Assembly: GCA_029856295.1 (NCBI GenBank)
Contig: JAHQWS010000204.1
Location: 1-32,488, forward strand
Origin: Promethearchaeia archaeon
GTDB lineage: Archaea; Asgardarchaeota; Lokiarchaeia; Sigyniarchaeales; SOKP01
Length of the DNA: 32,488 nt
Direction of reading: 5' to 3'
Every line of letters begins with the position of its first letter. Within the stretch, counting starts at the first letter, position 1. Below are positions 13,681 to 18,131 of the stretch, in pieces. The translations under genes and the position numbers were made by a program. A model generated the notes under the pieces. It was not told the DNA's origin. It did not search any database and saw only the letters and a list, made by a program, of their open reading frames with translations.

Positions 13681-14256
13681 TTATACCTCCTTAACTGACT
13701 CGTAAGCATCTTTGGCTACGGCCATATTCTTATCTATTCTCTCTTCCCCAAATTCTTTCTTTAAGACTTTTTCCATTATTTCAAGGGCATAATAACCCGA
13801 AACCTTTCCAAAAGCCCCCAACATAGGGATATTCAAGATGGGACCACTCGAATGCATGAACTTGTTCTTTATACAAATTCCTGTCGCATCAACAATAAAA
13901 ACTTTTACATTTTTAGGTAGTTTGTTTTTATCTAAAGGTCTAACGCTATCTACTATGAGTGTAACCCCCTCTTTAATAGTTTCGTTTATTCTGGGAATCG
14001 ATAGTAGAGATGTATCAAAGATGAGCATATAATCCGGGTCCTTCACACTATCATAAGTTCTTATTGATTTATCTTGAGATATTTTAGTAAAAGCTTGAAT
14101 AGGGGCACCTCTTCTCTCAGCACCTATAATGGGTATTGCGATCGTATCTTTAAATCCTTTTTCAAACGTGAACTCGGCTAATAATTGGCTTGCGGTGATC
14201 GCTGTTTGACCACCTCTCCCGTGAAACGTTATCTCTATTATACCATTATCTTTCAA
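13681..14256 (-). CDS. porC: 2-oxoacid:ferredoxin oxidoreductase gamma subunit
   Basis: FHGRGGQ, GAERRGAP and NIPMLGAF; first gene of the gamma-delta-alpha-beta operon; TTG start. Confidence 0.9.
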   Translation of the reverse strand: MKDNGIIEITFHGRGGQTAITASQLLAEFTFEKGFKDTIAIPIIGAERRGAPIQAFTKISQDKSIRTYDSVKDPDYMLIFDTSLLSIPRINETIKEGVTLIVDSVRPLDKNKLPKNVKVFIVDATGICIKNKFMHSSGPILNIPMLGAFGKVSGYYALEIMEKVLKKEFGEERIDKNMAVAKDAYESVKEV

Positions 14257-15377: not shown

Positions 15378-16587
15378 ATGACCATTAAAAAAGTTGGAAT
15401 TTTAACGGGTGGCGGAGTCATGTTAAAGGATTTCTTTAGCTGCCGTATACTGCCCGGGTTTAAACAGCGTAATATATGGCATTATGTTGAAAGCTTTCGA
15501 TGCCGGTGTTGAGTGTGTCGGTATTAAAAAAGGATGGAAAGGATTTTTAGAAAACTTGACCATTCCCCTCAATATTGCAGAACACGATGATCTCCATACT
15601 ATAGGAGGAACTCTCTTATATACCAGTAGAACCAATCCTTTTAAAGGAGTTGATTCTAAAGAAGAAAAATCAAAAGAGTTAGGAAAAAAATTTGATGATC
15701 TCGGCATTGATGCTCTAATCGCGATTGGTGGAGATTTAAAATGGTTTCCATTTTAAACTAAAAACGATACCCTCGGAGTCGCGGATGCTTTATATAAATA
15801 TGCAAATGCTAAGGTCGTTGGATGTCCAAAGACGATTGATAACGATTTAGCTGGCACCCATTATACTTTCGGATTTTGGAGTGCCGTTCAACTAGCATCA
15901 AATGCCATGGACAATCTTACAACCACGGCTAGATCCCATCAAAGAGTCTTTATTGTCGAGATAATGGGACGAGATGCCGGATTTTTAACAATGTACAGTG
16001 GAATCTCTTCAGGAGCAGATATTATTCTTATACCAGAAACACCATTCGATTTTGAGAGAGATCTTGTAGGCGTGCTAAAAAAAAGAGCAAATGCCGGTCA
16101 TAAATATCATATGATTGCGTGCTCTGAAGGGGCCTATCCCGATCAAGCATCACTTAAGCGAGACTTTAAGACTATAACCCAGGAGACCATTGATAAATTA
16201 CCAAAAGATGTCTTCGGAAATCCAATGTTACCCGCATTGAATATTTCAAACATATTAGTAAAGGAGTTAAATCTAAGAGATGATTTAAAAGAAGTTTTCA
16301 AGAAAAATGGAGTCGATTTTGAATGCCGTAGTGTAGTGCTGGGTCATACTATGAGAGCGGGAACACCCAATTCTTTTGATAGAATATTAGGACTTAGATT
16401 CGGTTTAGCAGCTATGAAACTCGTGCTTGATGGGGAATTCGGAAAAATGGTTTCCCTCCAAGGTACTGATATTACCACTTTTCCGCTTGAAGAGGGGGTA
16501 AATAAGAAATATATCAAGCCCGAAAGCGATAAATTAGAACTTAGGGATTTAATGGTTAAAATAAGGTATAAATCAAGAGAAAATTAA
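15378..16587 (+). CDS. pfp: Phosphofructokinase (PfkA family, PPi-dependent signature); three exons join(15378..15417,15449..15733,15764..16587), 382 aa
   Basis: Joined translation: MTIKKVGILTGGG-D-CPGLNSVI...GGTLLYTSR...LIAIGG-D-DTLGVA...GCPKTIDND...TFGF...SHQRVFIVEIMGRDAG...LGHTMRAG. Exons 40+285+824 = 1149 nt = 383 codons including the stop. Confidence 0.9.
15418..15448 (+). other. Putative BHB intron 1 (31 nt) in the pfk mRNA
   Basis: Central helix GCGG(15412-15)/CCGU(15443-46); bulges AG^U and AU^A; inner hairpin CA-GUUAAAG/CUUUAGC-UG; outer exon helix CGGGUG/C-GCCCG. Removal gives GGA GAC TGC (GGGDCPG). Confidence 0.85.
15734..15763 (+). other. Putative BHB intron 2 (30 nt, in-frame TAA) in the pfk mRNA
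   Basis: Perfect 10-bp inner hairpin UUUAAAAUGG/CCAUUUUAAA; bulges AG^A and AA^A; central helix GUGG/CUAA (3 pairs plus a G.A mismatch); outer helix AUUG/CGAU. Removal gives GGA GAC GAT ACC (GGDDT). Confidence 0.82.
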
Positions 16588-16727
16588 CTTGCTTTTTTTA
16601 CTTATTCTTTTTACTTTTAATAAATTTATTTTAAATACTTAATTTATTAGAAATAAATTAAGGGGAATAAAATCTGATTTTAACATACATAGTATATGGT
16701 TTTTTATAAAAACCTATTTATAGGGCT

Positions 16728-18131
16728 TTATTTAATCCTGACACCCTGTTTTTTGAGAATCTTCTGGACTTTTGAGATATCAACCTGTCTACATGTCACA
16801 TTTTCTTGAAGAGACACGGCAGCAGCTACACCAGCACCTTGGCCTGTGACTGTACAGCACGCCATTTGACGGGTTGCAGCATGGGAAATTTTATCTCCAG
16901 CAACACAGCGACCTGCCACGAGAAGGTTTTCCACTTTCTGTGGGAGTATAATGCCGTAAGGAACTTGGAAATATCTTCCCGTAGTAGGCAAGATTGCAAT
17001 GCCGTAGCCGTCTATAAACTCCGGACAGATGCCGATAGAGTCTTCAAAACGGGCCTCATTTCTCACATCATGCTCGGTGATGTTGTATTCACCGATTATT
17101 TTTCTGGATTCTCTGGTACCCAAAGATGATCCGATTGTTCTTAACCGTGCCTTTTTAAACCCTGGAGTGTATTTTTTTAAGGCTTCAACGGCCCACATCA
17201 CCCGCTTTCTGCCTTCCATTTCTGCCTTGGTAAGATCCCATATATCTGTGCAGTCATATCCTGTCATATGGATTCCGTTAAACGATGTAATCTCTCCCGC
17301 ATCCGTATAGTTGGTCCAATAGCTTTCTATGGTGACATTCTCGGGAATCTCACCGGCTTCCCTGGCCTTGTTAAACGGTTCCACGAGGTAGGTGCTGAAG
17401 GTATCTGCTTCCTTACCTGTGGTCTCACCCCAATCTCCTATGCTACCGCGATTTAGATATATATACATGAGAAATTTGCCGATATTTATACCACTACAAC
17501 CGAAGTTTACCGTCACCTCCATCAATTCGTTCTTCGGGTTTTTTCGAAATGGGGCACCTGCAAGGAAAGCGATATCGGCGTCTCCTGTGGCATCGATAAT
17601 CCTTTTAGCCAGAATTGCTTGTCTTCCAGATTTACTCTCTGTAATGACACCTTTTATAGTGTTGCCATCCAGGACCACATCAACAGCAGAACAATGTAAA
17701 ATTGGAGTAATTCCTGCTTCTTGTATTAGCGTATCGGCCACAAATTTGAACATCTCTGTTTCCAGAACCTCATAGGTTGGCTCCCCCTTTACCATCAATC
17801 CTTCCTGCTCAAGAACTTCCACCATTTCCGGATTCTTGATATTGCCGATTATATTTATAGTACTTCCCATCTCTTTTGCTCGACGTTCAAACTCAACTCC
17901 AATTCCCCCAGCATCCACAGTTTTTGCATATCGATACCACGCAATAGTTCCAATCATGGCCTGTGTTATAACCCCTCCAAAACAACCATATCGCTCTACA
18001 AGCATGGTATCAACACCTTCTCTTGCCGCTGCTAACGCAGCGGAGAGACCCGCGGGTCCTCCTCCTATTACTAAAACATCAGTCTCCGCCATAACGGGGA
18101 TTTTTCTTGATGGTTCTTCAATTTGTTTCAT
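16728..18131 (-). CDS. FAD-dependent oxidoreductase (FAD_oxidored/PF12831-like)
   Basis: DVLVIGGGPAG Rossmann motif, IDATGDADIA, RESRKIIGEY and NLLVAGRC...GQGAGVAAA. Confidence 0.88.
   Translation of the reverse strand: MKQIEEPSRKIPVMAETDVLVIGGGPAGLSAALAAAREGVDTMLVERYGCFGGVITQAMIGTIAWYRYAKTVDAGGIGVEFERRAKEMGSTINIIGNIKNPEMVEVLEQEGLMVKGEPTYEVLETEMFKFVADTLIQEAGITPILHCSAVDVVLDGNTIKGVITESKSGRQAILAKRIIDATGDADIAFLAGAPFRKNPKNELMEVTVNFGCSGINIGKFLMYIYLNRGSIGDWGETTGKEADTFSTYLVEPFNKAREAGEIPENVTIESYWTNYTDAGEITSFNGIHMTGYDCTDIWDLTKAEMEGRKRVMWAVEALKKYTPGFKKARLRTIGSSLGTRESRKIIGEYNITEHDVRNEARFEDSIGICPEFIDGYGIAILPTTGRYFQVPYGIILPQKVENLLVAGRCVAGDKISHAATRQMACCTVTGQGAGVAAAVSLQENVTCRQVDISKVQKILKKQGVRIK

Follow-up and report, generated by a model that had tools for sequence, protein, structure and literature searches.

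We describe here the phosphofructokinase (PFK) gene of a Lokiarchaeal genome (Promethearchaeota, Asgard), which lies on a contig of 32,488 nt (JAHQWS010000204.1 of assembly GCA_029856295.1; this whole stretch is hereafter called the window) and is interrupted by two short inserts. The second of these, a 30-nt hairpin with an in-frame stop codon, here called intron 2, is likely to be a relaxed bulge-helix-bulge (BHB) intron of the PFK mRNA, with EndA as its nuclease and RtcB as the ligase of its exons, as comparison of the site across related alleles suggests. Intron 2 also appears to be a member of a lineage-wide family of 29-32-nt protein-gene micro-introns that share one architecture, and the apparent presence of such a family of introns of about 30 nt across several Lokiarchaeal protein genes is a more important result than intron 2 alone.

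In the mechanism that we propose, exon and intron bases of the transcript would fold together into an outer helix, a central helix, an AG^A bulge, a 10-bp hairpin and an AAA^A bulge (a caret marks a predicted cut or a point of insertion). EndA, probably in a broad-specificity (alpha-beta)2 form, would then cut once in each bulge, and RtcB would join the exons to give GGA GAC GAT, restoring the active-site motif IGGDDT; intron 1 (15418-15448) would have to be removed likewise. Unspliced RNA would yield a truncated protein only.

The source is a fragmented metagenome-assembled genome (MAG) of 3.24 Mb in 337 contigs, 72% complete. It is labelled G000 below, with the window as its contig C205; G001 and G005 are genomes of the same genus, and L-numbers denote loci of relatives.

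An interrupted gene and its junction

PFK is found in the window as three open pieces, and the upstream open reading frame (ORF), 15484..15756, ends at the TAA of the insert. The Pfam PFK profile (PF00365) matches at 15451-15732 and again at 15766-16584 (profile positions are given in Table 1), and as the profile runs on across the insert, intron 2 replaces nothing in the PFK domain and the pieces belong to one interrupted gene. When spliced in silico, the protein matches those of intronless relatives from end to end in tblastn searches (for L003, 91% identity over residues 1-382), and at the site of intron 2 these relatives read ..IGGDDTLGVA... Ten extra codons in L003 and similar alleles were considered as a third intron and rejected, being an ordinary loop indel.

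PFK loci were collected from 40 relatives and from the genome collection, amounting to 101 Lokiarchaeal loci with 93 distinct sequences. Of the 90 distinct alleles that were scored for intron 2, 15 carry it, without exception at a length of 30 nt, and the remaining 75 lack exactly this stretch; intron 1 occurs at a length of 31-32 nt in 21 of 89 distinct alleles and is just as precisely absent elsewhere. Every carrier of intron 2 reads GGAG^...^ACGAU at the site. Ten of the 15 carriers begin GGAG^UUUU, so that the deletion at a codon boundary that would give GAT GAT is impossible there, leaving G^...^AC as the sole junction valid in all alleles. Applied to the window, the BHB rule places the cuts at G15733^A15734 and A15763^A15764 and gives GGA GAC GAT, that is, G-D-D as in the intronless alleles; shifting both cuts one base rightward (15735-15764) leaves an identical spliced product. 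An earlier reading of this DNA, made from its letters alone (the sequence-only reading), had predicted BHB splicing to GGA GAC GAT and had set this product apart from GAT GAT; the pattern of presence and absence supports the former prediction, and the alleles decide the latter in its favour.

Carriers are further set apart by their codons at the site, where AUC is used by 14 of 15, GGY follows, and GGA, GAC and GAU are each used by all 15. Among the 75 non-carriers, GGA is found in 28, GAC in 10 and the two together in one; because related genomes are not independent, such contrasts overstate significance and are descriptive only. The synonymous sites fixed in carriers coincide with exon bases that would pair or bulge in the proposed fold. 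At the site of intron 1, the codons GGC, GGA and GAC are used by 20-21 of the 21 carriers, compared with 9, 34 and 12 of 68 non-carriers.

Structure and conservation of the fold

The structural elements that the sequence-only reading had listed, including the stem with its UUU loop, the TAA, the helices and the bulges, can all be read in the sequence. GUGG (15728-31) stands opposite CUAA (15758-61), with the pairs G15731-C15758, G15730.U15759 and U15729-A15760 and a mismatch of G15728 with A15761; AUUG (15724-27) stands opposite CGAU (15765-68), and the bulge bases are A15732, G15733 and A15734 on one side and A15762, A15763 and A15764 on the other. In terms of BHB geometry, 4 positions separate the bulge AGA from the bulge AAA, and three of these central positions pair (G-C, G.U and U-A), the fourth being G/A. 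The 3' bulge may also be written with four nucleotides, a form also seen in PFK intron 1 and in the RNase HII intron described below. The 10-bp hairpin is returned by the minimum free energy (MFE) fold of ViennaRNA. Perfect hairpins of at least 10 bp give 3 hits (2 distinct) in the window, compared with a mean of 0.87 in dinucleotide shuffles, of which 13 in 100 reach 3; the hairpin alone is therefore within chance, and the signal beyond chance lies in its placement in a conserved ORF and in the comparative pattern.

Conservation of the fold was assessed in an alignment of 14 distinct 56-nt alleles, using a named structure that consists of the outer helix, the 3-bp central helix and the hairpin. 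Under this structure 94.5% of cells are paired, compared with 35-48% when the partners are slid, and pairing amounts to 100% in the outer helix and to 92.9% in both the central helix and the inner 10-bp stem. The covariation score is reached by only 1 of 500 shuffles. Pair 24/30 is compensatory (AU in 10 alleles, GC in 4), and the central pair 10/41 is UG in 6 alleles, UA in 3, CG in 2 and other in 3. The outer helix and the hairpin also emerge from RNAalifold unaided.

Splicing enzymes

A single EndA homologue (PF01974) is found in G000, as an ORF of 200 amino acids (aa), while two EndA paralogues of about 200 aa are present in four of the five relatives that were searched, these four being near-complete, and RtcB is present in all five. 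Asgard EndA is described in excerpts of the literature as an (alpha-beta)2 enzyme with an L1 loop that cuts relaxed motifs (PMC5829648), and the two paralogues fit this type. The suggestion of a broad-specificity EndA, made in the sequence-only reading, is thus compatible with the gene content of the four near-complete relatives. According to ARAGORN, 9 of the 41 tRNAs of G000 contain introns.

Several observations weigh against a BHB intron processed in this way and are gathered here. The motif is non-canonical, with three central pairs, one of them G.U, and a G/A mismatch; pair 10/41 is broken in 3 of the 14 alleles, which leaves two central pairs. RNAalifold does not predict the central helix from the intron 2 alleles, and this, together with the mismatch, agrees with the earlier description of the motif as relaxed. 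Covariation in intron 2 is modest, one pair having changed on both sides, a count that 440 of 500 shuffles reach, and a fold of 66 nt around the site is not unusually stable (z = -0.41; 58 of 200 shuffles are as stable). The non-independence of the codon contrasts has already been mentioned. In G000, at 72% completeness, RtcB was not found and only one EndA paralogue was. Lastly, we infer the cutting and joining steps themselves from comparison of DNA.

Putative micro-introns of similar architecture at other sites

The layout of intron 2, in which an outer helix and a 3-bp central helix are followed by an AG^N bulge, a hairpin and finally an NNN^A bulge, recurs in PFK intron 1 and in an RNase HII insert. 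In its MFE fold, PFK intron 1 has outer and central helices of 7 bp and 3 bp, a hairpin, and bulges that read AGU and UAUA, and both PFK inserts share the exon context GGAG^AC. Further inserts were obtained by comparing 1.76 Mb of G001 with G000 (blastn; 605 high-scoring segment pairs, 1.07 Mb aligned), which yielded 48 clean indels of 12-200 nt, 20 of them in coding context and 12 frame-breaking. On inspection, eight of these 12 frame-breaking events are credible protein-gene micro-introns; they lie in seven genes and are all 30 or 31 nt long. The identities of the host genes of recurrent inserts are Pfam-supported (Table 1).

Strong covariation is seen in the RNase HII insert, which is present in 9 of the 29 relatives' loci examined and has its junction, AG^...^A, fixed by the alleles of G024 and G011. 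The RNAalifold consensus of its nine alleles contains the outer helix, the 3-bp central helix, a 3-nt AG^N bulge, the hairpin and a 4-nt NAA^A bulge; 9 of 20 pairs are compensatory, 92.1% of cells are paired compared with at most 50.6% in slid controls, and none of 500 shuffles reaches any of five measures. The insert in rtcB of G005 is a canonical BHB with a 4-bp UUGG/CCAA central helix and 3-nt bulges (z = -3.28), and a cut after the second bulge base restores GVGY^DINCG exactly. It may be observed that here the presumed exon-joining ligase would itself need splicing.

Hand threading was used for other inserts. In G001, at C6:188665, the BHB cut rule restores the frame where the gap placement of BLAST gives a stop codon. 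The C147 insert forms a 9-bp hairpin, a 4-bp central helix, 3-nt bulges and a weak outer helix, and the epimerase insert has a 5' bulge larger than the canonical one. The insert in the second thiolase-like gene (C257) was not flagged in the comparison of G000 with G001, so that G001 presumably carries it and polymorphism undercounts inserts; a further 30-nt insert lies about 150 nt downstream in the C257-type thiolase-like gene of G001.

The other four of the 12 frame-breaking events were set aside. C205:31526 measures 20 nt and lies where a gene begins, C34:1515 is a tandem repeat, and C322:10793 is a 12-nt difference in low-complexity sequence. The fourth, C9:327752 of G001, lies in a tRNA gene, where the 31-nt insert forms a perfect helix-BHB-helix motif (hBHBh') with the helices GUGGG/CCCAC and UGCA/UGCA and the bulges aa^A and AA^u. 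Three further events proved ordinary, C302:13591 and C229:2760 being in-frame indels and C102:2820 being intergenic. When nine inserts were compared for likeness, the best pair, a tRNA intron and PFK intron 2, scored 10, where the null distribution has its 95th percentile at 2 and its maximum at 12; the likeness of the two sequences is suggestive only.

Other polymorphic inserts were seen in RNA genes of G001. Its large-subunit (LSU) rRNA gene (C1:205298; L122 3935-5438, minus strand) is interrupted by 29 nt that G000 lacks (C307:13900), and its tRNA-Val and tRNA-Ser genes have inserts of 30 nt and 23 nt that are absent from C102 of G000.

Two attempts to find such introns de novo gave little. 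A scan of G000 for BHB structures that join ORFs produced 35,041 hits by structure and 1,701 candidates that would join ORFs, the latter mostly gene-gene junctions and antisense frames, and was uninformative, recovering intron 2 and missing intron 1. A scan for hairpins with fixed-length excision, run with and without a filter for the absence of a start codon, returned hundreds of loci at each length with no peak at 29-32 nt and was rejected.

Table 1. Positions of the PFK gene, of the elements of intron 2 and of related inserts (window positions for PFK; carets mark predicted cuts or points of insertion)
Feature	Position	Strand	Description
PFK gene	15378..16587	+	Three exons, stop included; 382 codons after splicing
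Exon 1	15378..15417	+	MTIKKVGILTGGG plus G of Asp codon; from alignment with intronless alleles
Intron 1	15418..15448	+	31 nt, frame-shifting; between GGA G and AC TGC; removal restores GGGDCPGLN
Exon 2	15449..15733	+	Pfam PFK profile positions 11-100
Intron 2	15734..15763	+	30 nt; in-frame TAA at 15754-56; inside IGG-D^D-T
Exon 3	15764..16587	+	AC completes GAC, then DTLGVADA... to stop; Pfam PFK profile positions 103-276
Spliced protein			IGGDDTLGVADALYK, stretch expected in a tryptic peptide of the spliced product
Outer helix, 5' strand	15724..15727	+	AUUG (AUC G in 13 of 14 aligned alleles); partner 15765-15768; helix 100% paired, also by RNAalifold
Central helix, 5' strand	15729..15731	+	UGG; partner 15758-15760; G15728 faces A15761 unpaired
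5' bulge	15732..15734	+	A G^A; predicted cut after G15733; AG invariant in 14 of 14 aligned alleles
Intron hairpin	15735..15757	+	Perfect 10-bp stem, UUUAAAAUGG (15735-44) with CCAUUUUAAA (15748-57); UUU loop 15745-47
Central helix, 3' strand	15758..15760	+	CUA
3' bulge	15761..15764	+	A A A^A; predicted cut after A15763; 3 nt if G15728/A15761 counts as a mismatched fourth central pair
Outer helix, 3' strand	15765..15768	+	CGAU, within exon 3
G000 RNase HII	C197:4261-4290 (L209 1262-1291)	-	30 nt, in-frame TAG, inside GIDEAGR^GP
G000 NAD-dependent epimerase/dehydratase	C204:1544-1574 (L210)	+	31 nt, frame-shifting, just before YxxxK region; Pfam profile 1-126 and 138-240; absent in G001
G000 thiolase-like gene	C147:4215-4244 (L211 1216-1245)	-	30 nt in ..DLDALLIGN^M^DHFEG..
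G000 second thiolase-like gene	C257 ~14075-14106 (L213 ~1576-1607)	-	~32-nt hairpin insert between ..CYDE and TGTTTPEV..
G005 rtcB	C13:33458-33486 (L212 659-687)		29-nt insert inside GVGY^DINCG
G001 micro-introns			BKACE homologue; thiolase-like gene; P-loop protein

Alternative explanations

The alternative that survives best, though we regard it as unlikely, is excision of the RNA by another nuclease and ligase pair, or by a self-cleaving activity, that recognises the hairpin and an A-rich tail. The weak central helix of intron 2, with its two or three pairs, would be in keeping with such a system, as would the A-rich 3' tail common to several inserts and the narrow range of 29-32 nt in protein genes, which the BHB rule does not demand. 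In contrast, it is the BHB cut rule that gives frame-restoring junctions in rtcB of G005 and, by hand threading, at C6:188665 of G001, it is the exon-intron pairing defining a BHB that covaries in RNase HII, and a tRNA gene of the same genus contains a 31-nt insert that agrees in hairpin shape and is a perfect hBHBh'. No ribozyme, nor any other Rfam family, reaches the gathering score anywhere in the window. As the BHB rule predicts the correct junctions, an unknown excision system is not needed.

A gene with two disruptions, one a frameshift and the other a stop, could also be a pseudogene, or could have been inactivated by small insertions such as miniature inverted-repeat transposable elements (MITEs), which the inverted repeat of the hairpin resembles, and would then produce no mature protein. 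We consider this very unlikely in view of the state of the gene. Exon 3 is intact, with 273 codons, in all 15 intron 2 alleles, and the ratio of nonsynonymous to synonymous substitution rates (dN/dS) has a median of 0.046 and a maximum of 0.104 (69 of 105 pairs computable), indicating strong purifying selection on the exons. As this selection and the intact exon 3 are accompanied by a single PFK match in G000, a functional protein must be under selection, which requires that the inserts be removed or bypassed. The inserts have furthermore kept their position even between alleles with saturated synonymous sites. No direct repeat or target-site duplication flanks intron 2, and a blastn-short search of G000 for further copies gave, among the matches listed, only chance ones of at most 18 nt.

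Bypassing, in which ribosomes would hop over the 30 nt during translation, is known from gene 60 of phage T4 and from the mitochondrial 'byp' elements of Magnusiomyces, and the insert does contain a stop and a hairpin, superficially the ingredients of gene 60. In this window only, GAU is present on both sides of the insert (GGA GAU ... GAU ACC), whereas 10 of the 15 alleles read GGA GUU ... GAC GAU, so that take-off and landing codons do not match. Intron 1, at 31 nt, has no matching codon pair either, and a hop would not call for the conserved pairing, which takes in exon bases at both ends of the insert; bypassing is accordingly given even less weight than inactivation of the gene.

An assembly or sequencing artefact, which a window from so fragmented a MAG might invite, or a tolerated in-frame loop is scarcely credible, given that the same 30-nt insert is found in 15 distinct alleles of MAGs whose record titles name many different isolates and in a 151-nt metagenome contig from run X9 (which may or may not be the source sample of the window) that spans 15639-15789 without a single difference or gap, and that, as read by eye, every allele has an in-frame stop in an insert lying between the two Asp of GGDD. 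A self-splicing group I or group II intron does not fit the length of the insert, 30 nt compared with a ribozyme core of hundreds of nucleotides, or the lack of an Rfam match in the window.

Distribution and possible mobility

On a tree of PFK proteins with 90 rows, at least 17 changes are needed for intron 1 and at least 14 for intron 2, and neither is clearly clustered. Seven pairs of alleles have introns 2 that are identical at 30 of 30 positions despite a difference of 31-48% at third codon positions (loci L018, L047, L082 and L103; L068 and L087). Identical introns on diverged alleles imply either strong constraint on every base of the intron or lateral spread. The nearly identical pair L068 and L074 has extra synonymous differences directly upstream of intron 2; a local recombination tract was considered, and no conclusion was drawn, as selection for pairing explains the differences equally well.

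More tentatively, and with somewhat less than even confidence, we suggest that the BHB micro-introns of Lokiarchaeia, 29-32 nt long, may form a mobile family, related to the tRNA and rRNA introns of the lineage, which would colonise the most conserved catalytic motifs of many protein genes, including rtcB, and spread between lineages or sites rather than only vertically. This suggestion is made because identical introns are found on alleles that differ by 31-48% at third positions, because of the 14 or more gains and losses on the PFK tree, and because a tRNA intron resembles intron 2.

Other observations

About 50 nt past the PFK stop, at 16638-16662 of the window, a perfect 11-bp hairpin precedes a convergent gene (16728-18131, minus strand) and may be a terminator-like element. 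In L071 (CAZBPC010000002.1), a second short PFK-like match is found about 110 nt downstream of PFK, at 2430-2528 (query residues 349-381, 61% identity). ARAGORN places 24 intron-less tRNA genes within about 3 kb of a single contig of G000 (C308:5286-8171), the tRNAs outside this contig being scattered and often intron-bearing; this tRNA-dense contig may belong to a mobile element or a virus, or may have entered the assembly as contamination.

Comparison with known systems

To our knowledge, the textbook archaeal mRNA intron has so far been that of one gene, cbf5, in Crenarchaeota. The cbf5 pre-mRNA has a BHB intron in Aeropyrum and Sulfolobus (Desulfurococcales/Sulfolobales) and, as excerpts of the source describe it, resembles the case presented here in being an archaeal protein-gene intron in which exon and intron bases form the BHB, which the tRNA-splicing endonuclease is thought to remove and which has been lost in some lineages (PMC2738675). 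Unlike cbf5, the inserts described here belong to an Asgard lineage (Lokiarchaeia) and are hosted by metabolic and housekeeping genes (PFK twice, RNase HII, the epimerase, thiolase-like genes, BKACE and rtcB), with several genes affected, several sites per gene and lengths kept tightly to 29-32 nt. Their distribution is also very patchy, as the number of changes on the gene tree indicates, and their motif is relaxed, the central helix having 3 bp and the 3' bulge 4 nt; their splicing is proposed here from sequence. In the full-text literature searched, whose reach does not extend to supplements and subscription journals, no BHB introns in Asgard protein-coding genes are described, crenarchaeal cbf5 being the only precedent.

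In Asgard and TACK archaea, non-canonical tRNA introns are, according to excerpts of two sources, processed by (alpha-beta)2 EndA with an L1 loop (PMC5829648; bioRxiv 10.64898/2026.10.13.758758). They follow what appears in these excerpts to be the same recognition logic, in which relaxed motifs are tolerated, and they vary between close relatives, as do those in tRNA-Val, tRNA-Ser, a further tRNA and the LSU rRNA here. In the excerpts of the preprint on Asgard tRNA introns, protein-coding genes are mentioned only as neighbours of tRNA genes (bioRxiv 10.64898/2026.10.13.758758). In the present case the host RNA is an mRNA, and splicing therefore has to bring a reading frame back together in competition with translation, unlike that of tRNA introns.

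Unconventional cytoplasmic splicing is known for the HAC1 and XBP1 mRNAs, in which Ire1 acts together with tRNA ligase or RtcB, the XBP1 intron being 26 nt long. A role of RtcB in XBP1 splicing is reported in excerpts of PMC8718801. Common to these mRNAs and to the proposed PFK case are a short intron bounded by stem-loops, a cut by an endonuclease, joining by the tRNA-ligation machinery and a change of reading frame; in HAC1 and XBP1, unlike PFK as proposed here, the endonuclease is Ire1, and the process is regulated, of which no sign was seen for PFK.

Inteins and homing introns sit in the most conserved catalytic motifs and are patchy among close relatives. The same applies to the inserts described here, which interrupt GGGD^C, GGD^D, DEAGR^G and GVGY^D and are likewise patchy among close relatives, but which encode neither an endonuclease nor a protein-splicing domain and whose mobility we only infer. 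Because of their in-frame stops, removal must take place at the level of RNA, unlike that of inteins.

Implications

Should the inserts be spliced, gene callers will wrongly label essential Asgard genes as pseudogenes or as frameshifted or truncated genes, and metabolic reconstructions from MAGs wrongly score pathways as missing, as may be the case for glycolytic PFK, RNase HII and RtcB. The system is easily testable experimentally. If the suggestion of a mobile family is also true, mRNA would be spliced routinely by the tRNA machinery, and cells would have to keep ribosomes off messages that are still unspliced. Introns in the messages of the closest relatives of eukaryotes would bear on how transcription, splicing and translation became separated.

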